Assembly: GCA_965261385.1 (NCBI GenBank)
Contig: CBDHDB010000001.1
Location: 161,145-225,144 of the forward strand
DNA: 64,000 nt
Reading direction: 5' to 3'
DNA from: Dehalococcoidia bacterium
GTDB lineage: Bacteria > Chloroflexota > Dehalococcoidia > Lucifugimonadales > Australimonadaceae
Notes under the pieces: model-generated
Database searches by the model: none
The model's input: only the letters and a program-made list of their open reading frames with translations
What the model was told of the DNA's origin: nothing
Shown here: one piece after another, positions 2,102 through 49,620 of the stretch
How the letters are laid out: the number at the start of each line of letters is the position of its first letter
Numbering within the stretch: position 1 is the stretch's first letter
Made by a program: the position numbers and the translations under genes

Positions 2102-2147
2102 TCGTAGCGGCGCGGTCCCTGCCCTTCGTGGAGCGACGCCCCACTCC

Positions 2148-2538
2148 CACTGCGACATTTGCCCCTTACCCCAAACTCCCAACCTTTCGTAAAATTAACC
2201 CCTGCCATGCCCTCCAAAGACGAGAACGCCTCCTCCCCGACGCCCGCGCCCTCCGACGCGGCAACCTCCCTTATGCCCATTACGCCACTCGCCTCGCGCA
2301 ACAAACACAAAATTCTGGGTGATCCACTTTTGGCTCCCAGGAAGCAGGCCACGGCCATGAAAACACCCTCCAAAACCCCCGTCTCACCGTACAACTTGGA
2401 CAATTTTCACGCCTGGCACCCAGCGAATCCCAGCGAAACGGACAACTTTTTACGCCTGGCAAAAGTGAGTTGGACAACTTCTTCACGCCTAGCAAAATGT
2501 GGTGATCAACTTTTTTCGCGCAAACGGACAGCTTCCCC
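2148..2538 (+). repeat. composite element copy A (gene-less derivative of the 47334-49030 element)
   Basis: Left box CACTGCGACATTTGCCCCTTACCCC (2148-2172). CGTAAAATTAAC (2188-2199). 64-bp remnant of the rep 5' end from ATG 2207. Core AGGAAGCAGGCCACGGCC (2339-2356). Direct repeats at 2398, 2440, 2472 and 2503, plus terminal half repeat 2526-2538. Confidence 0.75.
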
Positions 2539-4751: not shown

Positions 4752-5606
4752 GTGGGCGTCGGGGTGCTGTGCGTTTCGCTCGCCTCCATTTTCATAAGAC
4801 TCGCGGACACCGACCCGCTCACCGTCGCCGCCTACCGGATGACCATCGCCAGCGTGGTGGTGTCCGCCGTCACCGTCGCGCTGGCTCGGAATCAGCTCTC
4901 AGCGGTCAAGCTCGGCGACCTTCCGCTTCTGGGCGTCTCCGGCGTGTTCCTCGCGGCGCACTTCGCGCTCTGGATCACATCTCTCTCACATACTTCAGTC
5001 GCCAGTTCCGTCTTGCTGGTGACAACGACTCCCGTATTCGTTGCGGCAGCGGCTGTCCTCTACACGAACGACCGCATCGGGCGGGTGACCACGGCGGCTA
5101 TCTTGGCGAGCATGGCGGGCGGCGCCCTCCTCGCCGCGGGTGACTGGGCGGAGGGCGAGCAGCGACTGAGCGGAGACGCGCTCGCTCTCGCCGGGGCCGT
5201 TGCCGTAGCCGGCTACTTGATTGTGGGCCGGAAGGTCCGCGGACGCATCCCCAATCTTCCGTACATCACGGTGGTGTATGCGGCCGCCGCCGTGGTCCTG
5301 GTGGTGGCGGCGGTCGTAAGCGGCGCGCCGTTGCTGGGACTCCCCATCGAGACGTACTTCTGGATGGCGATGGCGGCGCTAGTGCCGCAGGCGATCGGCC
5401 ACTCTCTCCTGAACTGGTCGCTCGCCTACTGGCCCGCGACCAACGTGACGCTTGCCGTGAGGGCCGAGCCGGTCATCGCGACACTGCTCGCGATTCCGGT
5501 TCTCGGCGAGGTCCCGCCCTGGACGGTCATCCCCGGCGGAGCTTTGGTGATGCTCGGGGTATACCTCGCGGTCAAGAGCGAGAGATCGCGCCAGCCGGAC
5601 GTATAA
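4752..5606 (+). CDS. EamA/DMT family transporter
   Basis: 284-aa polytopic hydrophobic protein (~10 TM) with two EamA-like halves. GTG start. Confidence 0.75.
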   Translation: MGVGVLCVSLASIFIRLADTDPLTVAAYRMTIASVVVSAVTVALARNQLSAVKLGDLPLLGVSGVFLAAHFALWITSLSHTSVASSVLLVTTTPVFVAAAAVLYTNDRIGRVTTAAILASMAGGALLAAGDWAEGEQRLSGDALALAGAVAVAGYLIVGRKVRGRIPNLPYITVVYAAAAVVLVVAAVVSGAPLLGLPIETYFWMAMAALVPQAIGHSLLNWSLAYWPATNVTLAVRAEPVIATLLAIPVLGEVPPWTVIPGGALVMLGVYLAVKSERSRQPDV

Positions 5607-5615
5607 TCGCGTCCC

Positions 5616-7337
5616 ATGCTCGTCGAACTGACCGTCCAAAATCTGGCCGTCATCGAAGAGACCCGCCTTACCTTCACGCCGGGGTTGAACGTGGTCACCG
5701 GCGAAACCGGAGCCGGGAAGTCGCTCCTCGTCGACGCCCTGGAGTTCGTTCTCGGCGGAGCGGCCGACCGAGACCTGATGCGAGCAGGGGCGGCGTCCGC
5801 AAGGGTCGAGGCCGTGTTCGCGACGGCCGGCGAGCCCCAAGTGCAGCAAGCCCTCCGCGCGCTCGATGTGGAGATCGACGATGAGGGACTCGTTGTGCTG
5901 GCCCGCGAGGTTCACCGCGAAGGTCGGACTATCTCGCGGCTGAACGGTCGCGCGGTGCCGGTTGGGATTGTTCGCGCGGTGGGCGACGCGCTCGTGGACA
6001 TCCACGGGCAGGGCGCTCACCTGTCGTTGCTAGACCCTTCCTACCAACGCCGTGTCCTGGATGACTGCGGAGGACTCGCTGAGCAGCGGAGGGCTGTCGC
6101 GGGCGCTATTGCCGACGTGGAGCGTATCCGACAGGAGCTCCTAGCCATCGCATCCAACGCACGCGACGCTGAGCAGAAGCGCGACCTGCTCGCCTTCCAG
6201 GTGAACGAGATCGACGCGGCGGGGCTGGCGCGCGGGGAAGAGGAGGCGCTGGTCCGTGAGCGCGATGTCCTTGTGAGCGCGGAGTCCATCCGCGAGGCGT
6301 GCGCCGCAGCATACGGCATGCTCCGCGAGGAAGGGAGCAACGCGGCCGACCTCATCGCGGAGGCGGTCCAAGCTCTTCGTCGCGCACCCGACCCAACGGG
6401 CGTCCTAGGCGCGCAAATCGAGGCATTAGAATCAGCGTCCGCTCAGATCGAGGAGGCGGCCCGCGAGACGCGCTCCTTCGGCGAACGCGTCGAATCCGAC
6501 CCCACGCGCTTGGCTGAAATCGAGGAGCGCATCGAACTCCTCCGCCGCCTCAAGCGTAAGTACGGCGACTCCGATGTCGAGGTCATCGCATTCGCCGATG
6601 AAGCCCGCCGCCAGTTGGAAGGAATCGACAATGCCGAAGAACGACGCGACGAAGCGGCGCGAGCGCTCTCCGGCGCAATGGAGCAGGCGGGCAAGCTCGC
6701 GTGGGAGCTATCCGAGGCGCGGAGTGCAGCGGCACGCTCCCTGAGCGCCGCTGTCGAAGCGGAGCTCGGCGAGGTCGGTTTGGACGGTGCCGCATTCGGC
6801 GTTGAAATCGAACGAACTCAGGCGAGCGACGGCCTCCCTGCGCCGGACGAAGCACACTACGCCTACTCGTCCGACGGCATCGACCGAATATCGTTTTCGC
6901 TCCGCGCGAACCCCGGCGAGGACATGAAGCCCCTTGCCACGGTCGCCTCCGGCGGAGAGACCTCCCGCATGATGCTTGCCCTCAACAGCGCGCTCCAAGC
7001 CACGTCCGGCGCGCCGACGCTCGTGTTCGACGAAATCGACGCTGGCATCGGCGGGCGAACGGGAACGGTCGTCGGCGCAAAGCTGTGGACTGTCGCCAGA
7101 CGCGCGCAAACGTTGTGCGTCACGCACCTCCCGCAGATAGCCGCCTACGCGGACAGACACTTCCGCGTCGACAAGGCGGTGTACGGAGAGCGCACATACG
7201 CCAGCGCCGAGGTCGTGGAGGACGAGCAACGCGTTGCCGAATTGGCCGGGATGCTGGGCGACGGAGACTCGGCGAGCCTCTCCGAGGCGGCGAGAGAGAT
7301 GCTGAAAGACGCGACGCGCTCGAAAACTGGCGTCTAG
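5616..7337 (+). CDS. recN: DNA repair protein RecN
   Basis: 573 aa. N-terminal Walker A GETGAGKS, long coiled-coil middle, C-terminal ASGGETSRMMLAL signature and LVFDEIDAGIGG Walker B. Confidence 0.92.
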   Translation: MLVELTVQNLAVIEETRLTFTPGLNVVTGETGAGKSLLVDALEFVLGGAADRDLMRAGAASARVEAVFATAGEPQVQQALRALDVEIDDEGLVVLAREVHREGRTISRLNGRAVPVGIVRAVGDALVDIHGQGAHLSLLDPSYQRRVLDDCGGLAEQRRAVAGAIADVERIRQELLAIASNARDAEQKRDLLAFQVNEIDAAGLARGEEEALVRERDVLVSAESIREACAAAYGMLREEGSNAADLIAEAVQALRRAPDPTGVLGAQIEALESASAQIEEAARETRSFGERVESDPTRLAEIEERIELLRRLKRKYGDSDVEVIAFADEARRQLEGIDNAEERRDEAARALSGAMEQAGKLAWELSEARSAAARSLSAAVEAELGEVGLDGAAFGVEIERTQASDGLPAPDEAHYAYSSDGIDRISFSLRANPGEDMKPLATVASGGETSRMMLALNSALQATSGAPTLVFDEIDAGIGGRTGTVVGAKLWTVARRAQTLCVTHLPQIAAYADRHFRVDKAVYGERTYASAEVVEDEQRVAELAGMLGDGDSASLSEAAREMLKDATRSKTGV

Positions 7338-12504: not shown

Positions 12505-12778
12505 GGGCAAAGTCCCCGACTTTCGATGAGGTTACGAGTGAAAAGTCCCTGATTCTCGGTGAGGTTACGAGTAAAAAAAGTACCCGAAAATCGACGACAT
12601 TGAAGGGTTGACAGAGGGCGTTTTCGTGGCCGTGGCCTGCTTCCTAGACCTTGGAACTACTTCCTGACCGAGATTGTTTTCTTATTGGCATGCGCCCCGC
12701 CTCCTCTCTCAGTCCCCCGCACACGGGGGCGGAGGGAACGAGTGCGGCGCCGGTTGGCAATGGGCAAGTGTCACTGTG
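12505..12778 (-). repeat. composite element copy B (gene-less derivative, inverted orientation)
   Basis: On the minus strand: CACAGTGACACTTGCCC (12778-12762). A REP-b hairpin. CGCATG remnant of the rep 3' end. TCAGGAAGTAGTTCCAA (12667-12651), an identical 17-mer to 48851-48867. AGGAAGCAGGCCACGGCC (12645-12628). Two 23-25 bp direct repeats plus a terminal half repeat (12585-12505). Confidence 0.75.
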
Positions 12779-12831
12779 CATCGGCGAAGCGCCTGCGCTG
12801 GAATGACGGGGAGGCGCGGGGAGGGCTGCGA

Positions 12832-12853
12832 GGTTCCCGCCTGCGCGGGAACC
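12832..12853 (-). repeat. REP-a palindromic element (core)
   Basis: GGTTCCCGCCTGCGCGGGAACC. An adjacent degenerate half, GCCTGCGCTGGAATGACGG, lies at 12791-12809. Confidence 0.8.
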
Positions 12854-12908
12854 CCTCATGTTGGGCTGATGCCCCACACCACAACCGACGAAAGTAGCGG
12901 GCCGGGCG

Positions 12909-12950
12909 GCCCCCTCTCTAACTCTCCCCCGCAGACGGTGGAGAGGACTT
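12909..12950 (-). repeat. REP-b element
   Basis: Reverse complement of CTCTCCACCGTCTGCGGGGGAGAGTTAGAGAGGGGG. Near-identical to units at 47003-47063 and 47231-47291. Confidence 0.8.
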
Positions 12951-26802: not shown

Positions 26803-26885
26803 TCCTCTCCCCGTCTGCCCCAATCCCTTCCCCTGTCTGCTCCGGTCCTCTCCCCCGTCTACGGGGGAGAGTTAGAGAGAGGGTC
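26803..26885 (+). repeat. REP-b element
   Basis: ...CTGTCTGCTCCGGTCCTCTCCCCCGTCTACGGGGGAGAGTTAGAGAGAGGGT. Same family as 47003-47063. Lies between the divergent Mo-oxidoreductase and ccmA genes. Confidence 0.8.
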
Positions 26886-26956
26886 CGCGCGTCTGCCCGC
26901 CAAGCAGGGCGACCCGCAGGGTACACTAGCAGCCAGGCGCGCCGCGCCGCCTCATC

Positions 26957-28374: not shown

Positions 28375-29135
28375 TCTTGGCAATTGTGAGGGCCAACCGC
28401 GAGGCGCGGTCGGCCGTGTGGCGGCAGGGGCTGCTCCTCTTGGCCGGAGCCCTCGTCCTGATCGACCTCTACATGATTTTCGAGCACGCGCCGACCGAGC
28501 GCGTCATGGGGATCGTGCAGCGGCTCTTCTACTTCCACGTCCCCGTCGTCCTCACCAGCTTCATCTCGTTCGCCGTGGCGGCCGTGGGCAGCGCCGTCTA
28601 CCTGACGAGGCGCAGCCGCGCATGGGACCGGCTCGCCTACGCGTCCGCTGAAGTCGGCCTCGTCTTCTTCACCATCGCCATCATCACCGGCGCGGTATGG
28701 GCCAAGCCCGTGTGGGGAACATGGTGGGTCTGGGACGCCAACGGCACCCTCACCTTCGTCCTCTGGCTCATCTTCATCGGCTACCTCATGGTCCGCGCCT
28801 ACGCCCCCGACGCCGACCGCGGCCGCCGCTGGTCCGCCGTCGTCGGCATCATCGGCGCGGCGGCTGTTCCGTTCGTCTACAAGGCCGCGGACTGGTGGGG
28901 CGGCCTGCACCCCGAGCGCGTCACCGGCCCCGGCGCCGAGGGCTCGCTCGAAAGAGCAATGCTCACCACCCTCCTCTTCTCCTTCGCCGCCTTCCTTGTC
29001 CTCTACGTCGCGCTCATCGCCGAGCGGACCGCCCAACGCAAAGACGAGGAAACGCTCGAAGACCTACGCCGGACCATCGACGACCACTCTTCCGTCATTC
29101 CCGCGAAGGCGGGAACCTCGCAGCCCCCAGATTAG
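28371..29135 (+). CDS. ccmC: heme exporter protein CcmC, with a REP-derived C-terminal tail
   Basis: Last ~254 codons of track ORF 27291..29135. GTG 28371 overlaps the ccmB stop (GTGA). WGTWWVWD tryptophan-rich (WWD) motif. The last 16 aa (SSVIPAKAGTSQPPD) are encoded by a REP-a unit. Confidence 0.85.
   Translation: MILAIVRANREARSAVWRQGLLLLAGALVLIDLYMIFEHAPTERVMGIVQRLFYFHVPVVLTSFISFAVAAVGSAVYLTRRSRAWDRLAYASAEVGLVFFTIAIITGAVWAKPVWGTWWVWDANGTLTFVLWLIFIGYLMVRAYAPDADRGRRWSAVVGIIGAAAVPFVYKAADWWGGLHPERVTGPGAEGSLERAMLTTLLFSFAAFLVLYVALIAERTAQRKDEETLEDLRRTIDDHSSVIPAKAGTSQPPD
29093..29117 (+). repeat. REP-a palindromic element inside the ccmC 3' end
   Basis: CGTCATTCCCGCGAAGGCGGGAACC, translated in-frame as VIPAKAGT. 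The stop codon follows 18 nt later. Confidence 0.85.
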
Positions 29136-30084: not shown

Positions 30085-30223
30085 ACCTTCCCTCTGTCGG
30101 GAGTATAACAGTGAACGGAGCGGAAGGCGGTTGGTGCGAGGGACAGCTTCGGCGCGTACAGCCTCCCGCTTGCATCACCCCTGCGGAGGTTCGCCCCCGC
30201 CCGCCACTGCGCAGTCCTCCCAC

Positions 30224-30460
30224 CACTGTGACACTTGCCCCTTACCCAAACCCTCTGCCGTGTTCTATAACTCGCCGCCGCTCATAGAGAGAGCCAATGC
30301 CGATTTGCGTGTTTTCACATTTAATTCGCGCTCTTGAACGCAGGAAGCAGGCCGTGGCCTGCTAAACAGCCCCGATCAAGAAGCCGAAGGTACCCCTTTC
30401 AGCGACACAAACCACCAAGGTTTACGAGTAAAAACCCCCATCAAGAAGTCGATTTGCTCC
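30224..30460 (+). repeat. composite element copy C (most diverged, gene-less)
   Basis: CACTGTGACACTTGCCCCTTACCC (30224-30247). AGGAAGCAGGCCGTGGCC (30342-30359). One inverted iteron-like unit GGTTTACGAGTAAAAACCCCC (30419-30439). Direct repeat CCC(G/C)ATCAAGAAG(C/T)CGA at 30371 and 30436. Confidence 0.65.
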
Positions 30461-30585
30461 CACACCGCGGACGGGCCGGGGAGGCTATCTCCCTCGCAGA
30501 CGGTTCCACCCGCCGCCCGCCCATCTTGGCGCAGCCGCGCGGCTCGTGTACGCTCGCGGCATCCTGGCGCGCGGGAGGAATAGCT

Positions 30586-31692
30586 ATGGGCGACGAAATC
30601 GAGGTCAACCCTTACTACGGGGTCTTTCCGTATACCGACTTCATCAAGGACGAGGGCATCCCAATCCACGAGGCCTACTCCATCGACTGCCATACCGTGG
30701 AGCTCGAGCCGTGGGAGCGCATGGGAGGACTGGGCGCCTATGTCCACCTCGCCGGACGCTCCGACTATCTCTCGTCCTACGTGGTCGAGATTCCCCCGGG
30801 CGGACAGCTCAACCCCGAGCAGCACCTGCACGACGAGCTCATCCACGTCGTTTCAGGACGCGGCGCCACCGTCATCGAGACGCCCGAGGGCAAGAAGTAC
30901 TCCTTTGAGTGGGGGCCGTCCGCCATCTTCGGCATCCCGATGAACGCGAAGCACCAGATATTCAACGGCTCCGGCACGGAGCCCGCCCGGCTCGCGGCCG
31001 TCACCGACCTCCCCATCATCTTCAACGTCTTCCGCGACAAGAGCTTCATCTACGACAACCCGGTCACCTTCCCGTCCCGCTCCGACACCGCCCGATACTT
31101 CGACGGCGAAGGCGAGTTCCGCGAGGTCAAGCCCGGTCGGCATCAGTGGGAGACCAACTTCGTCCCCGAGCTCGTCAATTTCGAGCTTCCGCCGTGGGCC
31201 GCCCGCGGCGCCGCCGGGAACAACATCCAGTTCTTGCTCGCCGACTCGTCGATGCACTGCCACATCTCCGAGTTCCAGCAGGGCACGTACAAAAAGGCCC
31301 ACCGCCACAACGCCGGCGCCCACATCTTCTGCGTCACCGGCGAGGGCTACTCTCTGCTCTGGAAGGAAGGCGAGAACCCCGTGGACACGGTCCGCGTCGA
31401 TTGGAAGCCCGGCTCCCTCTACGCTCCGCCCGACGGGCCCACCTACCACCAGCACTTCAACGTCGCCGACGGCCCCTCCCGCTACTTGGTCTTCGGCTTC
31501 GGCGGCGCGCGCTACCCCGTCCTCGAGTCCAAGATGGTCGGCTACGAGAACATGGACAAGTCCGCCAAGGAAGGCGGCCACCAGATCGAGTACCAGGACG
31601 AGGACCCCCGTATCCTCGACCTCTACGAGACCGAGCTGCAGAAGCGCAGTCTCAATTCCAAGATGCGAGAGTTCGTCGGTTCGCGGACCTAG
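30586..31692 (+). CDS. bicupin metalloprotein (putative dioxygenase), paralog 1
   Basis: ATG 30586 with GGGAGG upstream, 368 aa. Two cupin metal motifs (PGGQLNPEQHLHDELIHVVSG and GTYKKAHRHNAGAHIFCVTGEG). Confidence 0.8.
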   Translation: MGDEIEVNPYYGVFPYTDFIKDEGIPIHEAYSIDCHTVELEPWERMGGLGAYVHLAGRSDYLSSYVVEIPPGGQLNPEQHLHDELIHVVSGRGATVIETPEGKKYSFEWGPSAIFGIPMNAKHQIFNGSGTEPARLAAVTDLPIIFNVFRDKSFIYDNPVTFPSRSDTARYFDGEGEFREVKPGRHQWETNFVPELVNFELPPWAARGAAGNNIQFLLADSSMHCHISEFQQGTYKKAHRHNAGAHIFCVTGEGYSLLWKEGENPVDTVRVDWKPGSLYAPPDGPTYHQHFNVADGPSRYLVFGFGGARYPVLESKMVGYENMDKSAKEGGHQIEYQDEDPRILDLYETELQKRSLNSKMREFVGSRT

Positions 31693-31722: not shown

Positions 31723-32826
31723 ATGGGCGACGACGTCGAGTTCAACCCGTATTACGGAATCTTTCCCTACCGGGAGTTCCTCAAGGAAGAGGGCGTCCCC
31801 GTGTTCGAGGGCTACGCAGTCGACTGCAACACGGTCCCCGTGGAGCCGTGGGGGCGCTTAGGCGGACTGGGCACCTACGTGCATATCGCCGGCAAGAGCG
31901 ACTACCTCTCCGCCTACGTGGTCGAGATTCCCCCCGGCGGACAGCTCAACCCCGAGCAGCACATGCACGACGAGCTCATCCACGTTATCTCCGGGCGCGG
32001 CGCCACCGTCATCGAACGCCCGGACGGCAAGAAGTACTCCTTCGAGTGGGGCCCGAGCGCGATCTTCGCCATCCCGCTCAACGCGAAGCACCAGATATTC
32101 AACGGCTCCGGCACGGAGCCAGCCCGGCTCGCCGCCGTCACGGACCTCCCCGTGATCTTCAACGTCTTCCGCAACCCGGACTTCATCTACAGCAACCCCT
32201 TCCAGTTCCCCGAGCGCATGGCCGCCGAGAAGTACTTCGACGGCGAAGGCGAGTTCCGGCAGGTCAAGCCCGGCCGGCACCAGTGGGAGACCAACTTCGT
32301 CCCCGAGCTCGTCAACTTCGAGCTCCCCCCGTGGCTCGCGCGCGGCGCCGCCGGAAACAACATCCAATTCCTCCTCGGCGACAGTTCGATGCACTGCCAT
32401 ATCTCCCAGTTCTTCGAGGGCACGTATAAGAAGGCCCACGCCCACAACGCGGGCGCGCATATTTTCTGCGTCACCGGCGAGGGCTACTCCCTGCTCTGGA
32501 AGGAAGGCGAGAACCCGGTGGACGCGGTCCGCGTCGACTGGAAGCCCGGCACCCTCTACGCTCCGCCCGACGGCCCCACCTACCATCAGCACTTCAACGT
32601 TTCGGAGGGCCAGTCCCGCTACCTGGTCTTCGACTTCGGGGGCGCCCGCTACCCTGTCCTCGAGTCCAAGATGTGGAGCTACGAGAACATGGACAAGTCC
32701 GAAAAGGCCGGGGGCATGCAGATCGAGTACGAAGACGAGGACCCGCGCATCCACGAGCTCTTCGAGAGCGAACTCGCCAAGCGGGGCCTCAGGTCCCGTA
32801 TGCACGAGTTCGTCCCGGCCAGATAA
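31723..32826 (+). CDS. bicupin metalloprotein, paralog 2 (tandem duplicate)
   Basis: ATG 31723 with AAGGAG upstream, 367 aa. Colinear with paralog 1 and identical at roughly four fifths of positions by eye. Confidence 0.8.
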   Translation: MGDDVEFNPYYGIFPYREFLKEEGVPVFEGYAVDCNTVPVEPWGRLGGLGTYVHIAGKSDYLSAYVVEIPPGGQLNPEQHMHDELIHVISGRGATVIERPDGKKYSFEWGPSAIFAIPLNAKHQIFNGSGTEPARLAAVTDLPVIFNVFRNPDFIYSNPFQFPERMAAEKYFDGEGEFRQVKPGRHQWETNFVPELVNFELPPWLARGAAGNNIQFLLGDSSMHCHISQFFEGTYKKAHAHNAGAHIFCVTGEGYSLLWKEGENPVDAVRVDWKPGTLYAPPDGPTYHQHFNVSEGQSRYLVFDFGGARYPVLESKMWSYENMDKSEKAGGMQIEYEDEDPRIHELFESELAKRGLRSRMHEFVPAR

Positions 32827-43719: not shown

Positions 43720-44913
43720 TCACCGCAACCCGTGGACGGGGAATACCAGGCGCTTGATCTCGTCCGTCTGCTCCTGAGCGTAGGCGCGGGCCTTGGCGCG
43801 GATATCGGGGGCGACCGTCGCCGTCCCCTCGTCGTCGCGCAGCCGCGGGCTTTCGAGGAAAGCGCCGGCCTCGACGGGCAGCTCGTCGGGCCAGTCGCGG
43901 CCCAGCATCGCGCCGTAGGCGAGGGTCCAGCACCGGGGCACGGCGTCCAGGTCGTAGCCGCCGCCGCCGAACGCCAGCCACGGATAGCCCATCGCGCCCA
44001 GACGCTCGACGGCGGCCATGTACCCGTGCGTGCTCAGACTCAGATGCGTGAGCGGGTCGTCCACGTAGGCGTCCGCGCCGAGCTGCGTCGCGAGCACGTC
44101 CGGCGCGAACGCCTCGATCAGCGGCGGGACCACCTGGTCGAACGCATCGAGGTAGATGGCGTCGTCCGTGTACGGAAACAGCGGCAGGTTCACCGAGTAG
44201 CCCGCCGCGTCCCCAGCCCCCAATTCGGCGACCGCGCCCGTGCCGGGGAACAGCCAGCGCCCGCTCTCATGGATGGATATCGTCATCACGTCCGTGTCGC
44301 GGTAGAAGGCGGCCTGTACACCGTCGCCGTGGTGCGCGTCGATGTCCACGTAGACCACCCGCAGCCCGCGCTTCCGCAAAGCGTTGATGGCGACGACGGG
44401 GTCGTTGAAGATGCAGAACCCGGAGGCCCACCCGCGCATCGCGTGGTGCAGCCCGCCCGCCGGCGCGAACGCCGCCGACGCCGCGCCGTCCGCTACGAGC
44501 TCCGCCGCCTGGACCGACGCTCCCGTAGAGAGCAGCGCCGCCTCGTACATCCCCGGATAGACCGGATTGTCGCCCTGTTCGGAGAACCCGTGCCCCCCTC
44601 CGTCATTCCCGCGTAGGCGGGAATCTCGTCCCCTCGCCGTTCCCCCGATAGCCGGATCGGGCTGCTCCTCGCCGCTGCTCAGACGGCGCACGACGTCGAT
44701 GTAGCTCTCAGTATGGAACGTTGTGAGCTCGTCCATCGTCGCCGGACGCGGCGCGACGAGCATCGCGCTCTCGTCCTCGAATGCCCCGTAGGCGCGGAGT
44801 AGCTCGTAGGTGCGCTGAAGGCGGACGGGGACCATCGGGTGGCCCTCCCTCAGCACGTGGCGCGATAACACCTCGTCATAGACATACGCCGCCCTACCGC
44901 CTAGATGAGTCAT
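43720..44913 (-). CDS. histone deacetylase family / acetoin utilization AcuC-like deacetylase with an in-frame REP-a insert
   Basis: 397 aa. GGLHHA, DIDAHHGDG and ...GGGGY motifs. The segment ...TARGRDSRLRGNDGGGHG... is encoded by a REP-a unit on the opposite strand. Confidence 0.85.
   Translation of the reverse strand: MTHLGGRAAYVYDEVLSRHVLREGHPMVPVRLQRTYELLRAYGAFEDESAMLVAPRPATMDELTTFHTESYIDVVRRLSSGEEQPDPAIGGTARGRDSRLRGNDGGGHGFSEQGDNPVYPGMYEAALLSTGASVQAAELVADGAASAAFAPAGGLHHAMRGWASGFCIFNDPVVAINALRKRGLRVVYVDIDAHHGDGVQAAFYRDTDVMTISIHESGRWLFPGTGAVAELGAGDAAGYSVNLPLFPYTDDAIYLDAFDQVVPPLIEAFAPDVLATQLGADAYVDDPLTHLSLSTHGYMAAVERLGAMGYPWLAFGGGGYDLDAVPRCWTLAYGAMLGRDWPDELPVEAGAFLESPRLRDDEGTATVAPDIRAKARAYAQEQTDEIKRLVFPVHGLR
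44601..44625 (+). repeat. REP-a palindromic element inside the deacetylase CDS
   Basis: CGTCATTCCCGCGTAGGCGGGAATC. Read on the minus strand in-frame as DSRLRGND. Confidence 0.85.
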
Positions 44914-45407
44914 CGCAGCCGGAGTCTAGCAAAGCGGAGCCTCAACCCCACAGGATGGAAAAGGGGGAGGGAGCGGGCTTTTCGGGAGCAAGTTGGCTTC
45001 TCAATGGGATTTTTACCCATAATGTTTGGTCCTCGTGTCGCCGGAGGGGCGCCTTCGGCTTCTTAAAGAGGGGTCCACAACGGAGTCGTCGTGGCCACCG
45101 ACCGGCGTGCTCTCATGCTGAACTCCGGCATGGCGTCAAAAGACGTGGTCGAGGTTCCTATCCGGGCCTGCAAGTGGACTATAACGAGGGGTTGACCTGC
45201 TCCGGCTTGAATTTGTCCGGCAGCACGGACCAGGACTACGCTTACTACCTTGACCACAACGGCAAGAAGCAAATCAGAAGCCGGGCCAGGCCGTTGTTCG
45301 AATGCGTGCTCCGGCAAATCCACGCCGCGGCCAACCCCGCCGGCGACTAACCGGGGAAGGCACACAGGGACGGCGAACCGGAAGAAACTACGCCGGAGGG
45401 AACAATC

Positions 45408-46730: not shown

Positions 46731-46826
46731 GCACAACGGCAACAGCTCATTTAGCCTTGGCGGCAACATCCACATCTGCTCCCTGGTCATCGGTCGAAGC
46801 GGCAACTCAGAATCCCCCTAACTAAG

Positions 46827-46849
46827 CCCCACTGGCGGGGACTCGAACC
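46827..46849 (-). other. orphan tRNA 3'-end-like fragment (possible att remnant)
   Basis: Minus strand reads GGTTCGAGTCCCCGCCAGTGGGG, i.e. T-loop, T-stem 3' half and acceptor 3' strand. The upstream 50 nt cannot be folded into D, anticodon or T-stem 5' arms. Confidence 0.4.
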
Positions 46850-47002
46850 ATGTGAGGGCCCTTAAGTGCTATCGCCTGCCCCAGAGCGCAAGTCTACCGC
46901 CCACGAGTATCGAATCTTTCCGTTGCTATTACTATAAAGGGGCTCCTCGACGGCCTCGTCCAAGCCCAAGCCGACATCTCCCGCCTCAACGCCGCCTCCT
47001 AA

Positions 47003-47063
47003 CCCCTCTCCCCCGTCTGCTCCGGTCCTCTCCACCGTCTGCGGGGGAGAGCTAGAGAGGGGG
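47003..47063 (+). repeat. REP-b element (first copy of a ~95-bp direct duplication, 47001-47095)
   Basis: CCCCTCTCCCCCGTCTGCTCCGGTCCTCTCCACCGTCTGCGGGGGAGAGCTAGAGAGGGGG. Confidence 0.85.
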
Positions 47064-47134
47064 CCGCCCCACCCGCCAATCAACGCCCCCGCACCCATCA
47101 TCGCCAAGCCCATCCGTCATCGCCACGCCCCACC

Positions 47135-47159
47135 TGTCATTCCCGCGAAAGCGGGAATC
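47135..47159 (+). repeat. REP-a palindromic element
   Basis: TGTCATTCCCGCGAAAGCGGGAATC. Confidence 0.85.
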
Positions 47160-47175
47160 TAGGACGCCCACTTTC

Positions 47176-47200
47176 CGTCATTCCCGCGCAGGCGGGAACC
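47176..47200 (+). repeat. REP-a palindromic element
   Basis: CGTCATTCCCGCGCAGGCGGGAACC. Confidence 0.85.
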
Positions 47201-47230
47201 TCGCAGCGGCGCGACAGCGGCGCGGTCCAT

Positions 47231-47291
47231 CCCCCTCTCCCCCGTCCGCTCCGGTCCTCTCCACTGTCTGCGGGGGAGAGCTAGAGAGGGG
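47231..47291 (+). repeat. REP-b element (second copy of the direct duplication, 47229-47323)
   Basis: Differs from 47003-47063 at two positions (TCTGC/TCCGC and ACCGT/ACTGT). The flank GGCCGCCCCAC(C/T)CGCCAATCAACGCCCCCG is also repeated. Confidence 0.85.
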
Positions 47292-47393
47292 GCCGCCCCA
47301 CTCGCCAATCAACGCCCCCGTCCCACCAACCACCACTGTGACACTTGCCCCTTACCCCAACCCCCCTCCCCCACGTAAAATTAACGCCAGACA

Positions 47394-47427
47394 GGCCCTG
47401 GGAAGCACGGCGACCCGGGGCCTTTTT
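47394..47427 (+). terminator. terminator-like hairpin in the leader of the rep-like gene
   Basis: GGCCCTGGG, 11-nt loop, CCCGGGGCC, then TTTTT. Lies 28 nt upstream of ATG 47455. This segment is absent from copy A. Confidence 0.4.
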
Positions 47428-47454: not shown

Positions 47455-48830
47455 ATGCCCACTCCCCAAGACGACAACTACCTCCACGCCGTCTCACGCG
47501 CCCTCCGGTGCGGCAACCCCGATTGCCCGTGCGCCTCCGAACCCCCGCGACTCCACTGCCCCATCCACCCCACTCCCGACGTCCCCACCCTCACCGTCGA
47601 CTTCGACGATTACCTCGGCTTCACCTTCCAATGCTCCTCCGACTCCTGCGACGACGCCCGCATCGCCTCCGCCCTCGCCAAACGCGGACTCGCCCCCGAC
47701 TCATGGCTCTACACCTCCACCGGCGCCCAGGAAGCCGGACTCAACCCCCTCTCTCTCATGGTTCCTCACCCGCAAGACTGGCTATGGCCCAACCGCATCC
47801 CCATGGCCGCTCTCACACTCATCGCCGGATTCCCCGGCTCTGGCAAGACCGCCATCGCCCTCGACATCGCCGCACGCGTCTCCGTCGGCGCCCCTGCCCC
47901 CGACAACCCCAATGCTGCCTTCCTCCGTGCTCCCGTCCTCATCGCTCCCTTCAACCGCGCCCCCGCTTCCGCCATACCCCTCCTTCGCGCTTTCCGCGCG
48001 GACCTCTCCCTCATCTACTTCGCCGATACCCTCTCACCCGAGCACCTCGCCGATCTCCCCGAAGGCCAGTCTCTCCCGGACTACGAGGCCCTCGAGCACA
48101 AGGCCAAGCTCCACGACAGGGCACGCTCCATGGAGGACCTCTGGCAGTCCCCCATGCCCGACGAGATGAAGCGGCCCCTCAAGGTCCCCGACCGTCCTCC
48201 CTGGCCCGGACTTGACCTCCTCATGCGACGCCTCCACAACCTCATCGTCCGCGGCAGCGTAGCTCTCCTCATCGTCGACCAGGTCCGAAGACCTCGCCGC
48301 CCGCCGCGCCGCACGGCCCCTCACCGTCCTCGGCAAGCTCAACGGACTCGCCGCGCGCACCGGCGCCGCCGTTATCGCCATCGCCCACAATCCCGAGCCC
48401 GCGCTCCCAAAGGCCGCTCACTCCCTGCGCCGGACCCTCTCCGCCGCCGCCGTCGTCTTCACCACTGCCCTCGCCAGACCCAACCGTCGACGTGTCCTCT
48501 TCCCCCTCCGCCCGCCCATCGACGATGCCCCTCCCCCCATTCCCTACTCCCTCGCATCCCCCCAAATCGCCTGGCGCAAACCCATCCCGCAACGCCGCTC
48601 GCAGCTTCATCCTGCACGCCCTCGCCGGCGGCCCCAAACCCGCCGCCCGGATCAAGCAGGAAGCCGAGGACCTCGGTATCTCCAAACACCAACTCGCACT
48701 AGCCCGCGCCTTCTACAACGTGACAACTGTGAACACCCGGTCCAAGGATTCCACTGGGAAGCGGTGGTGCTGGACTTTCCCTCCCGCGCCCCCCTCGCAA
48801 GAGACGGTTCCCCTGGAAATCCCCGCATGA
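47455..48830 (+). pseudogene. replication-initiator-like gene (primase-type Cys/His finger, P-loop RepA/DnaB-like ATPase, C-terminal wHTH), two frameshifts
   Basis: Frame 1: MPTPQDD...CGNPDCPC...HCPIHPTPDVPTLTV...FQCSSDSCDD, Walker A GFPGSGKT, Walker B LLIVDQV. Shift near 48283-48287 to EDLAARRAARPLTVLGKLNGLAARTGAAVIAIAHN. Shift near 48581-48593 to ARSFILHALAGGPKPAARIKQEAEDLGISKHQLALARAF...KRWCWTFPP. Confidence 0.7.
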
Positions 48831-48932
48831 ATTACAGAACAAACATCAGTCAGGAAGTAGTTCCAATACCCAGGAAGCAGGCCACGGCCATAAAAACACG
48901 CCCCGCCAGCCCTGTTTTCGCATGTTTTTCCG

Positions 48933-49030
48933 GGAAGTTTTGACTCGTAAGCCAATGGGAGACTCGGGAATTTTTTACTCGTAGCAAAAATGAGGTGGGG
49001 AACTTTTTTCACCCAACGGGGAACTTCCCG
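48933..49030 (+). repeat. iteron-like direct repeat array
   Basis: GGGAAGTTTTGACTCGTAAGC (48933), GGGAATTTTTTACTCGTAGC (48967), GGGGAACTTTTTTCACCCAAC (48998), terminal half GGGGAACTTCCC (49019). Spacing is 34, 31 and 21 nt. Confidence 0.7.
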
Positions 49031-49051
49031 TATCCGTCCTCCGCCGCCCGC

Positions 49052-49620
49052 CTAACTCCAGACCGGGAGGGGTCCAAGGAGTGCTTCGTCGGCGCGGCGG
49101 ATGATCGTCTCGACCGTTTCATCGGGGGTCATGCCCGACGTGTCCAGCCAGAGGCCCAGGCCTTGCATCTGCTCGCGCAGCTCCGCGTCCAGGTAAGCGA
49201 ACCTCTCGGCCACGTGCTTTTCGACGCGTCCGCTGTCCCGCTCGATCGCGACCTCGACAGGGGGCGCGAGCACGATGTACCGGAGCGACCAGCGGGAGAG
49301 GACCTCCCGGTAGCGCGCCATTTGCGGCCGCAGAATGACATCGTCAACGATGGGCGTGAACCCGGCGCTCATCAACGAGTCCGCCAAGAGCGCGGAGTTG
49401 CGGGCGCCAAGCTCCAGCTGCGCGTTGGATTCAGCCAGAGGCTCCTCGCCGGGGAGCACGTACCCGGACAGGATCATCGCCCTGACCAAGTCCGTCTCGA
49501 CGTGCGCGGACCTCGGAAGCCGCCGGGCGAGTCCCCTCGAAACCGTGCTCTTCCCCGCCCCGGGCACGCCGGTGATCAGCCATACGCTATCGCTGCCCGC
49601 ACTGTCGCTGATAGAAGGCA
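49052..49620 (-). CDS. P-loop kinase-like protein (AAA_33 / chloramphenicol-phosphotransferase-like)
   Basis: GTG 49620 lies 7 nt after the helicase stop. VWLITGVPGAGKSTVSRGLARRL Walker A, ~189 aa. The track ORF extends further upstream into the helicase gene. Confidence 0.65.

Follow-up and report, generated by a model that had tools for sequence, protein, structure and literature searches.

The window analysed here, a stretch of 64,000 nt from contig CBDHDB010000001.1 of a Dehalococcoidia bacterium (GCA_965261385.1, positions 161,145-225,144), contains copies A to E of an element associated with arrays of short repeats. In copy D, three repeats of approximately 21 nt and a short terminal site (48932-49029) lie 3' of a gene that is no longer intact, and the whole is, judging from its sequence, a decayed cassette. 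The same array design, with a period of 31-35 nt, is found at 2398-2538 (copy A) and, on the minus strand, at 12585-12505 (copy B). The cassette is a one-gene unit of approximately 1.7-2.2 kb that consists of a promoter-like block, the gene, a core, a box, a site array and a terminal palindrome. It appears to be undescribed, and a literature search for AAA_25 (the ATPase family of the encoded protein) or Chloroflexota together with iterons found nothing.

Anatomy of cassette D and of the gene-less copies

All parts of cassette D lie on the forward strand. The outermost is an optional left block (46840-46930), which is 78% identical to positions 5745-5836 of locus L162, is also present in L110 and holds an inverted conserved box, CCGCCCACGAGTA, at 46897. 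For this region (46826-46925), the possibilities of a tRNA fragment and of an att site were rejected, as ARAGORN returned no prediction and the T-arm pairs fail by eye. REP-like insertions (47003-47320) separate the left block from the promoter-like block at the left end (47333-47400; CCACTGTGACACTTGCCCCTTACCCC...TAAAAT), where the homology with other cassettes begins and which is common to copies A (2140-2213) and C (30220-30270) and to L109, L101 and L162-L165. Promoter function of this block is inferred; a generic sigma-70 and terminator scan found nothing. The pseudogene that follows (47455-48830) encodes, in three-frame translation, a zinc finger, an AAA_25 domain and a winged helix, and is 88.6% identical to L162. 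It differs from the intact orthologue P0004 by an insertion of 1 nt at 48285 and by the loss of 65 nt after 48587.

The family-wide core AGGAAGCAGGCCACGGCC-ATAAAAACACGCCCC (48872-48904), which contains the near-palindrome GGCC-RY-GGCC, starts 41 nt 3' of the decayed gene. A head-like palindromic site, AGGAAGTAGTTCC (48852-48864), starts 20 nt upstream of the core and is present in every array examined of type 1, the class to which copy D belongs. The repeats themselves are GGGAAGTTTTGACTCGTAAGC (48932-48952), GGGAATTTTTTACTCGTAGC (48966-48985) and GGGGAACTTTTTTCACCCAAC (48997-49017), the last of which is a position-specific penultimate unit kept in L099 and L164. The short palindromic site GGGGAACTTCCC (49018-49029) forms the right cassette boundary, 22 nt from the stop codon of a convergent kinase-like gene. 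The successive spacings in copy D are 34, 31 and 21 nt, compared with 42, 32, 31 and 23 nt in copy A (unit starts 2398, 2440, 2472, 2503 and 2526) and 35 and 33 nt in copy B (minus strand; 12585, 12550 and 12517). These repeats had been recognised in a first-pass annotation, and each of them occurs exactly once where it had been placed, with the start of copy D corrected from 48933 to 48932. Promoters of the sigma-54 or ECF-sigma kind (TGGCAC...; GGAAC...CGT) were also considered for the sites by inspection and rejected, as the spacings do not fit.

The other copies in the window lack the gene. Copy A (2140-2538, plus strand) retains the promoter block, the first approximately 25 nt of the gene (ATG at 2208) and the core (2339-2371), followed by four GGACAAC-headed units and the terminal GGACAGCTTCCCC (2526-2538), and a PrpD/MmgE-like gene follows it at 2634. 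Copy B (12505-12775, minus strand) is situated between groEL and gyrA, upstream of gyrA, and retains a promoter-like remnant, a AGGAAGTAGTTCC site (12665-12653), the core (12645-12613), two units and the terminal GGGGACTTTGCCC (12517-12505). Copy C (30220-30461, plus strand) belongs to another specificity class; it keeps the promoter block, its core (30342-30374) holds the perfect palindrome GCAGGCC-GT-GGCCTGC, and GATCAAGAAG-type sites are present together with a reversed box, TTTACGAGTAAAAA (30421-30434). This copy shares 80-83% identity with the gene-less L054 and with the stretch that lies 3' of the intact gene in each of L101 and L109. Copy E (44985-45075, minus strand), directly upstream of a histone-deacetylase-like gene, is 89% identical to L165 from position 6441, which is 3' of an intact cassette in a syntenic genome. 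As read from these alignments, A, B and C arose by internal deletions that spared the promoter block and the site array; in E, only a truncated right part remains of a C-type element.

Beyond the window, a contig search with the 18-mer core gave 115 matches, approximately 100 of which are chance matches in coding regions of unrelated phyla; 15 real loci were picked by inspection. A metagenome search gave approximately 14 family loci, half of which end before the 3' end, and the type 1 class is represented by only 4 gene-bearing loci. Multiple intact copies occur per genome. In the loci examined, the cassette has no integrase or partner genes, and its neighbours are unrelated housekeeping or metabolic genes.

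Register, constraint and variation of the repeats

The core AGGAAGCAGGCCACGGCC has 4 matches in the window against 0.18 expected, and TTNACTCGTA has 5 exact matches, all of which fall within elements B, C and D. The family-wide core reads GGAAGCAGGCC-RY-GGCC...AAAACACCC, and the conserved box reads TTYACTCGTR. In each of the 20 loci whose gene is readable at its 3' end, the distance of the core from the stop codon is between -130 and +55 nt, and locus-specific repeats come after the core. The register of the array is constant in 11 arrays from at least 5 genomes: the opening unit is placed at +59 to +61 relative to the core, the array has 2-4 full units with a period of 32-34 nt, and the terminal site begins 21-23 nt after the last full unit in the longer arrays and 26-34 nt after it in the two-unit arrays. 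Each locus contains 5-7 sites, all of one variant and in both orientations, among them direct repeats that are unable to pair with one another.

When loci of the same class from different genomes are compared, the sites, core and box are 87% identical and the spacers 58% identical (Fisher p 3e-13), so that constraint falls on the sites and not on the spacers. The GC content is 49-53% across the array compared with 65% in the flanks, and T-runs recur with a period of approximately 32 nt. The array centre consists of the GC-rich core palindrome and then an A-run, and is unlike a classical AT-rich unwinding element.

Repeats had been proposed in the first-pass annotation to resemble each other more within a copy than between copies, which is correct overall (similarity 0.75 within and 0.65 between copies; permutation p 0.02) and for the G-rich head (GGGAAG/GGGGAAC, GGACAAC or GGGTAC/GGGGAC, depending on the copy). 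The similarity between D and B (0.75) is on par with that within D (0.72), and the copy-specific part is therefore the G-rich head. The same proposal extended copy-specificity to the ACGCCTGGC and ACTCGTAAC bodies and does not hold for them in the wider family, as both bodies co-occur within single arrays of four relatives (L099, L105, L110 and L164). The conserved terminal element described there as a half site is indeed present in the arrays, but is better named a short palindrome, composed of a head and its inverted copy (GGGGAA-C-TTCCC).

The encoded protein and the co-variation of its winged helix with the repeats

The protein of copy D comprises a Cys/His zinc finger, a RecA-fold AAA_25 ATPase domain and a C-terminal winged helix. 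After repair, it matches Pfam AAA_25 (PF13481) with 52.1 bits (cut-off 27, E 8e-14), and PF13481 is found in 120 of 120 relatives among the matches listed. The fold of the ATPase is RecA/KaiC/RadA-like. In AF2 models the winged helix has the order H-H-H-beta-beta (pLDDT 82.6), and the closest solved folds are those of PadR, MarR and Pex (TM approximately 0.58). An hhalign comparison of the family with P0158, which contains Toprim_2/3 and AAA_25, gives a probability of 99.8 with 30% identity over 319 columns that include the winged helix. By this homology the family protein is considered a derivative of Toprim primase-helicases, and no Toprim or Prim-Pol domain was matched in D, P0001, P0004, P0020 or P0022. 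The zinc finger shows a CPxH..PTL pattern; our reading of the alignment is that it resembles the primase-type zf-CHC2 finger, for which there is no Pfam match.

Searches of Pfam, NCBIfam and PHROGs give AAA_25/DnaB-like P-loop matches only, with no Rep_3, RepC or other plasmid initiator domain. A tblastn search of 72,556 plasmids matches the P-loop region only, and the phage and IMG/VR collections yield P-loop-only matches or none. A viral search with the Toprim relative recovered truncated loci only, and defence-system models give weak P-loop matches only (mad8, TRIP13). The family was found only in Chloroflexota/Dehalococcoidia and only on chromosomal contigs. Its members are annotated merely as 'AAA family ATPase'.

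Co-variation of protein and repeats was examined with distance matrices and Mantel tests in 12 intact family loci. Iteron distance is strongly correlated with winged-helix distance (r 0.84, Mantel p 0.0002; partial r 0.84 given the ATPase part), and it is not correlated with the distance of the ATPase part (r -0.05). The correlation between the interleaved spacers and the winged helix is likewise negligible (r 0.06). Part of the correlation between iterons and winged helix could reflect co-inheritance, because the gene and its sites adjoin; the spacer control argues against this, though the spacers are near saturation.

Natural domain swaps match the prediction. In the alignment, P0071 and P0079, from the same genome, have near-identical N-terminal parts and different winged helices, and their 14-mers differ (GATCAAGGGGGCCA and GAACAAGATTTCA, respectively), whereas P0079 and P0042, from different genomes, have different N-terminal parts and the same winged helix, and both are associated with GAACAAGATTTCA. 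Additionally, three blind predictions of the iteron from the protein were recorded beforehand; two were exact, and the third was exact in the 5' half and close in the 3' half. The first-pass annotation had suggested that the repeats are sites co-evolving with an adjacent cognate protein and that protein and repeat type should co-vary among intact copies. The 12 intact loci, the swaps and all three blind predictions bear this out, in the absence of binding data and with no more than 4 gene-bearing loci for type 1, the class of copy D.

Proposed initiator-like sites and competing readings

The repeats are probably double-stranded DNA recognition sites (iterons) for the winged helix of the protein encoded immediately upstream, although no binding or replication data are available. 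Rep-iteron specificity groups, one of the two examples offered in the first-pass annotation, fit the homology with Toprim primase-helicases and the position of the sites directly 3' of the ORF. By analogy with self-loading helicase initiators, several protomers would bind by their winged helices to the phased sites that flank the core; this physical binding is inferred, as is the subsequent oligomerisation of the docked protomers, which would proceed through the ATPase domain. The oligomer may then melt the core and box region or load there; helicase action and replication-origin-like activity are likewise inferred. In such a complex the conserved zinc finger might read the conserved motifs, and the variable winged helix would provide specificity. 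Three observations count against recognition of this kind by an initiator: the winged-helix fold is closest to transcription factors, the family was found on chromosomal contigs only, and the centre of the array is a GC-rich palindrome with an A-run, although the lower GC content of the array as a whole counts in favour. The lack of integrase or partner genes and the several intact copies per genome would be unusual for a replicon.

In a competing reading, the array between the ATPase gene and the next gene is an operator region for an ATP-dependent transcription regulator, the winged-helix ATPase, which would control read-through or initiation into that next gene, and the gene-less arrays (A, B and E) are bound in trans by family members encoded elsewhere. 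This reading is unlikely. Several observations agree with it, among them the closeness of the winged-helix fold to PadR, MarR and Pex regulators. The gene-less loci L095 and L111 occupy an orthologous position in front of one shared gene and have 81% identity over 468 aligned columns (66% when only the element region is counted), with ACC changed to TTC in concert at 4-5 sites, and remnant E has been retained (89% identity) in front of the deacetylase gene after the loss of the rest of the cassette. The downstream gene is co-oriented in 10 of 11 loci examined and for 3 of the 4 window copies, but 13 of 15 is not clearly above neighbour bias (p approximately 0.13 by our own estimate with a baseline of 0.7). 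The gene-less copies are deletion derivatives with the first gene codons, and the decay of a selfish element explains them equally well. Furthermore, a primase-type zinc finger combined with a RecA-fold ATPase of the Toprim primase-helicase kind is the architecture of a replication protein. To our knowledge, no known regulator class has it.

There is little likelihood that the sites are transposase end-binding sites at the right end of a Tn7/Mu-like mobile element, the second example in the first-pass annotation. Tn7 and Mu ends do resemble the array in having several spaced subterminal protein sites that end with one at the element boundary, and homology between copies ends exactly at the terminal site (L164, L110, L105 and copy A). 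Cassettes with 86-92% nucleotide identity occur at different loci in many unrelated contexts, with flanks that share no similarity, and the deletion derivatives retain both ends in a MITE-like manner. Two genomes with flanking proteins of 79-97% identity carry, in one intergenic slot, cassettes that differ in class and face opposite ways, and cassette turnover therefore takes place; the mode of spread remains an inference. However, no DDE, HUH, serine or tyrosine recombinase is encoded, the sole ORF being the ATPase, and the IS30/IS110 genes found nearby vary from locus to locus. A GTGACAC promoter-like block forms the left end, without an inverted array or a head or box array, the right end has no TGT...ACA termini, and target-site duplications were not seen at the boundaries. 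When an empty site was sought by way of the flanking protein of the window, only the same arrangement was recovered (L170), and the syntenic genome L165 has another cassette in that slot, not an empty site.

A structured RNA in which the variation is compensatory, be it the 3' UTR of the ATPase transcript, a leader of the following gene or an antisense transcript, has the slimmest chance: the array does have a conserved promoter-like block on one side and the next gene on the other, and type 2 sites form two long inverted repeats, with L119 folding at z -3.7 and the minus strand folding better in 14 of 17 (hairpin 1) and 12 of 17 (hairpin 2) with more G-U pairs, yet the window array is made of direct repeats that fold no better than shuffles (z +0.46), and winged-helix residues predict the site sequence. 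Two independent hairpins per locus share one sequence, which a common reader demands and folding does not, and the box occurs in both orientations relative to the core. Rfam 15 has no match in the whole window at gathering scores or in 48800-49070 at E up to 10, and L119 gives chance-level microRNA matches only.

For the preferred reading, in which the repeats are iterons of the adjacent protein, the closest analogues would be self-loading helicase initiators of the SaPI Rep type and archaeal replicator-initiator pairs. P4 alpha is a further initiator of the former type. The C-terminal winged helix of SaPI Rep binds iterons directly downstream of the rep ORF, which run in opposite directions around a centre (PMC9371898). 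As in SaPI Rep, the cassette protein unites an ATPase motor and a winged helix, and the iterons follow the ORF directly, face opposite ways about a centre, differ by locus and match the cognate protein. The motor, however, is of the RecA-fold AAA_25 type (SF4-like) and not SF3/AAA+, and a catalytic primase domain is absent, leaving the zinc finger only (the comparison is with SaPI Rep/PriRep). The units are 14-mers or 32 nt long, whereas SaPI iterons are 5-6-mers, and the centre is a conserved GC-rich palindrome in place of an AT-rich tract. Unlike SaPIs, the cassettes are solitary, without integrase, regulators or packaging genes, are present in several copies per chromosome and were found in Chloroflexota only.

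Archaeal Orc1/Cdc6 genes and their ORB repeats show mosaic evolution and are thought to have been captured from extrachromosomal elements (PMC4010727). In both systems a gene for an ATPase with a C-terminal winged helix lies beside its own repeats, and several pairs with distinct linked specificities occur per chromosome. Orc1/Cdc6 is an archaeal AAA+ ATPase, whereas the cassette protein is RecA-fold and bacterial with no known origin activity, and many cassette copies are pseudogenes or gene-less. Iteron plasmids (Rep_3/RepA-type; IncQ) likewise have direct repeats by the rep gene, a partial terminal repeat and specificity groups, and IncQ RepA is an AAA_25-like helicase, to whose structure (1g8y) the family match is weak; their period is approximately 22 nt compared with 32 nt in the cassette, and neither a plasmid initiator domain nor a plasmid relative was found. 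The pRN1 origin, where a stem-loop just 3' of the replication-protein gene ORF904 and an upstream promoter block are both needed (PMC4234260), is similar to the type 2 hairpins, whose loop contains the core. ORF904 is a Prim-Pol and SF3 helicase protein of an archaeal plasmid, without iteron specificity classes.

A more comprehensive reading can be offered only tentatively and is doubtful as a whole. The cassettes would be solitary initiator-plus-replicator units built on a Toprim-less primase-helicase derivative, the recognition helix would read the 3' half-site and the wing the 5' half-site in a simple modular code, turnover would be recombinase-free by an unknown mechanism, and gene-less arrays retained in front of host genes such as gyrA would be live targets bound in trans. 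If this were true, the host would gain local programmable DNA amplification or unwinding, or an ATP-driven layer of gene control.

If the repeats are iterons of the adjacent protein, the cassettes constitute a natural set of matched protein-DNA pairs, with dozens of winged-helix variants and each site repeated 5-7 times by its gene, which would provide material for deciphering the code by which winged helices recognise their sites and for assembling DNA-binding or origin modules that are orthogonal. They would also be a bacterial counterpart of the archaeal replicator-initiator mosaics in a poorly studied and largely uncultured lineage, and how a recombinase-free one-gene cassette spreads and is replaced, and what role gene-less arrays have in front of gyrA and other genes, would become concrete questions. 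The arrays account for a recurrent class of conserved intergenic repeats in Dehalococcoidia annotation.

Copies of the module and their repeat arrays

One module, a cassette of promoter-like block, ATPase gene, conserved core, box and site array, is present in five copies (A-E) in the window, of which copy D is the most complete. On the plus strand, copy D comprises an optional left block (46840-46930) followed by REP-like insertions, a conserved promoter-like block (47333-47400), the gene as a pseudogene (47455-48830), a head-like palindrome 5' of the core (48852-48864), the core (48872-48904) and then the array. Compared with an intact orthologue (88.6% nucleotide identity), the pseudogene has one extra nucleotide, at 48285, and lacks 65 nt after 48587. 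Copies A, B and C have lost the gene and retain the promoter block, core and sites; copy A additionally retains the first ~25 nt of the gene. The gene-less copy B (12505-12775, minus strand) is found in the space separating groEL from gyrA, ~245 nt upstream of the gyrA start; should the arrays act in trans, gyrA would be a noteworthy host gene. Copy E (44985-45075, minus strand), the truncated right part of a C-type element, is located upstream of a deacetylase-like gene (43720-44913) and shares 89% identity with the stretch that follows the intact cassette of the syntenic locus L165. Copy C is followed immediately by tandem paralogous genes (30586-31692 and 31723-32826; 79% identical over the first 300 nt, offset 1137 nt); in the related locus L105, the type 1 array has a relative (35% amino acid identity) ~0.9 kb on its upstream side.

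Exact sequence matches place the array units at 48932, 48966 and 48997 in copy D (plus strand), with the terminal site GGGGAACTTCCC at 49018-49029; at 2398, 2440, 2472 and 2503 in copy A (plus strand), with the terminal site at 2526; and at 12585 and 12550 in copy B (minus strand), with the terminal site at 12517. All repeats quoted in the first-pass annotation are present where it placed them, and its spacing of 31-35 nt holds for the start-to-start distances with a single exception of 42 nt. From the last full unit to the terminal site the distance is 21-23 nt in A and D and 33 nt in B. The arrays are not due to chance, because the 18-mer core preceding every array occurs four times in the window against 0.18 expected, and all five exact matches to TTNACTCGTA in the 64 kb fall within elements B, C and D. 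The repeats had been described as copy-specific, which is true in part: similarity is higher within a copy than between copies (0.75 versus 0.65, permutation p 0.02) and the G-rich head is copy-specific, but D and B repeats are as similar to each other as those within D. The proposal that ACGCCTGG versus ACTCGTA in the body of the repeat distinguishes the copies is not sustained in the wider family, as both bodies are mixed inside single arrays of relatives.

Correspondence between winged helix and sites

Wherever a related locus includes the gene's 3' end (20 of 20 loci), the core lies between -130 and +55 nt from the stop codon and is followed, in fixed register, by repeats particular to the locus. 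The core and the box TTYACTCGTR are common to all three architectural classes. In type 1 (D, A and B), a head-like site at -20 and two to four direct units of ~32 nt from +60 are closed by a short palindrome. Type 2 loci carry 14-mers such as GACCAAGGGGGCCA at -22 and -14 (inverted), +35, +44 and +88 (direct) and +116 (inverted), with one box among them, whereas the C type (copy C) carries GATCAAGAAG-type sites and a reversed box. Comparison of same-class loci from different genomes gives 87% identity for sites, core and box and 58% for spacers (p 3e-13). Six gene-less type 2 copies (L051, L060, L081, L095, L100 and L111; noted about 260 nt upstream of the core) form a conserved family of their own (~330 nt), in the order promoter block, ATGAC start, ~15 codons and site array; the codons, seen as CYATAG repeats, resemble the protein N-terminus (MT..P..PIDRxYSS).

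Over its first 1.1 kb the gene shows 86-92% identity between cassettes; beginning with the winged helix, these cassettes share only 72-74% identity within type 1 and are unalignable across classes, so the winged helix and its sites travel as a single module. Natural swaps among the family proteins agree with this. P0071 and P0079, from one genome, have near-identical N-terminal parts in the alignment, different winged helices and different 14-mers; P0079 and P0042, from two genomes, differ there in their N-terminal parts, have the same winged helix and are both accompanied by GAACAAGATTTCA.

The co-variation of repeat type and protein proposed as a check was examined in 12 intact type 2 loci, in which site distance correlates with winged-helix distance (r 0.84, Mantel p 0.0002). 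No correlation is observed between the sites and the ATPase part (r -0.05) or between the spacers and the winged helix (r 0.06). Residue x of LGIS..TL-x-RAR tracks the 3' half-site (R with GGGGGCCA, F with AGAGTGCCA, V with AATGTCA and H with ATTTCA), and the wing tracks the 5' half-site (TPGVPSG with GAAC). Three site predictions were written down from the protein ahead of DNA retrieval: the 14-mers of P0048 and P0053 are exactly as predicted, and for P0100 the 5' half is as predicted and the 3' half close. Type 1 is consistent, with a K(R/H)QLE helix accompanying GGGGAAC heads and an LHQLRQ helix accompanying CCAACAAC heads, in a comparison that rests on only the four gene-bearing loci available. 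The relationship between sites and protein is established by computation, and the correspondence is modular. The repeats noticed in the first-pass annotation are real, and their interpretation as binding sites co-evolving with the adjacent protein is supported by the co-variation, the swaps and the advance predictions.

The ATPase family and a proposed mechanism

The repaired copy D product matches Pfam AAA_25, and its family (450-590 aa) is annotated only as "AAA family ATPase". In the family alignment, a Cys/His finger whose CPxH..PTL pattern is that of primase zinc fingers stands at the N-terminus, followed by the Walker A and B motifs and, at the C-terminus, by a helix-helix-helix-hairpin. 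In AlphaFold models, the central domain groups with RecA/KaiC/RadA folds and the tail is a canonical winged helix (pLDDT 82.6; nearest PadR/MarR/Pex). A family search gave 186 matches; all source names given and all related genomic loci found are Chloroflexota/Dehalococcoidia MAGs, with at least two or three intact paralogues per genome. In one subfamily (P0014, P0016, P0019, P0022, P0024, P0026 and P0037; also L117 about 5430-5470 and L125 about 5200-5240), the annotated ORF reads through the core, so that its long C-terminal extension shows the conserved DNA motif GAACAAGGCCGTGGCCTGCTCGATAAA as a spuriously "conserved" peptide, EQGRGLLDK.

Among 1.84 billion representatives, a profile search yields for the tight family no more than about three full-length clusters at 50% identity, together with 533 relatives that are more distant (E up to 1e-30). 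Toprim primase domains are present in three of ten distant relatives checked, and P0158, the only one of the three compared with the family profile, has the ATPase and winged helix in common with it (hhalign probability 99.8). Judged by this homology, the family is a Toprim-less branch of the primase-helicase replication proteins.

The anatomy of the cassette agrees with that of self-loading helicase initiators. The C-terminal winged helix of SaPI Rep binds iterons immediately downstream of the rep ORF, and the sites face each other across a centre, with one hexamer thought to load per side (PMC9371898). Several specificity-matched replicator-initiator pairs likewise occur per archaeal chromosome (PMC4010727), and the pRN1 origin similarly has a stem-loop downstream of the replication gene (PMC4234260). 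On the model that this anatomy makes most likely, protomers would dock on the phased sites via the variable winged helix and oligomerise via the ATPase before acting on the core and box, both of them conserved and perhaps read by the equally conserved zinc finger; the steps of binding and oligomerisation, like any activity as an origin, are inferences. No description of this cassette was found in the searchable literature. The cassette adds to the initiator-iteron theme another motor fold, a solitary multi-copy chromosomal life style and restriction to one lineage.

Neighbours, turnover and RNA folding

One rival reading, in which the protein is an ATP-dependent regulator controlling the next gene downstream, is not excluded. 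That gene is co-oriented in 13 of 15 cases and the upstream neighbour in 6 of 11 (11 fetched gene-bearing loci and copies A-D); the downstream genes mostly encode metabolic enzymes (amidohydrolase, CoA-transferase, SDR, asparaginase, PrpD-like).

Nor is it excluded that the arrays are the ends of an unconventional mobile element. Cassettes 86-92% identical are found in unrelated contexts, and homology between cassettes stops sharply at the promoter block and the terminal site; no integrase or transposase is present inside the cassettes of the loci examined. The region 42.4-51.9 kb of the window is syntenic with L165 (four flanking proteins compared, 79-97% identical; three 90-97%). The slot between the kinase-like and deacetylase genes is occupied by D (type 1) in the window and by an intact C-type cassette in the opposite orientation in L165; cassettes are thus replaced on a short evolutionary scale. 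The window retains the last ~90 nt of the L165 C-type element before the deacetylase gene, as copy E; in this lineage, a PH-domain gene and cassette D, in opposite orientation, took the place of the rest. Gene-less arrays can also persist: L095 and L111, the two copies looked at more closely, are found just upstream of orthologous copies of one host gene, with a concerted change from ACC to TTC at 4-5 sites setting them apart.

Two REP-like palindromic intergenic families flank nearly every cassette in the window and its relatives. The first, with TTCCGTCATTCCCGCGCAGGCGGGAACCTCG, is found at 1959-1999, 2074-2114, 29090-29130, 44598-44638, 47132-47213 and, on the minus strand, 12817-12851; the second, an 89-nt unit with CTCTCCCCCGTCTGCGGGGGAGAG, at 26823-26911, 47003-47091, 47232-47320 and, on the minus strand, 12897-12948. 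Such elements are inserted within the upstream region of the cassette in D and L163. An IS30-family transposase gene is close to three cassettes (L101 1801-2805, L165 3727-4731 and L163 795-1799), immediately upstream and divergent in L101 and L165, which may reflect coincidence or an insertion preference for the left flank.

A structured RNA is an unlikely explanation of the D array, which folds no better than shuffled sequence (z +0.46) and matches nothing in Rfam, even with the E threshold relaxed to 10; the folding seen in type 2 arrays (z -3.7) comes solely from the inverted-repeat arrangement of their sites. A shared protein reader rather than RNA helices is pointed to by the use of one sequence in two separate hairpins of a locus, the direct type 1 repeats, the box in both orientations and the predictability of sites from protein residues. 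For both inverted-repeat hairpins of the type 2 loci (L116-L173, e.g. L119 1770-1950), folding favours the minus strand over the plus strand, in 14 of 17 and 12 of 17 loci respectively, plus-strand A-C mismatches being G-U pairs on the minus strand; this bias could be due to composition or to an antisense transcript.
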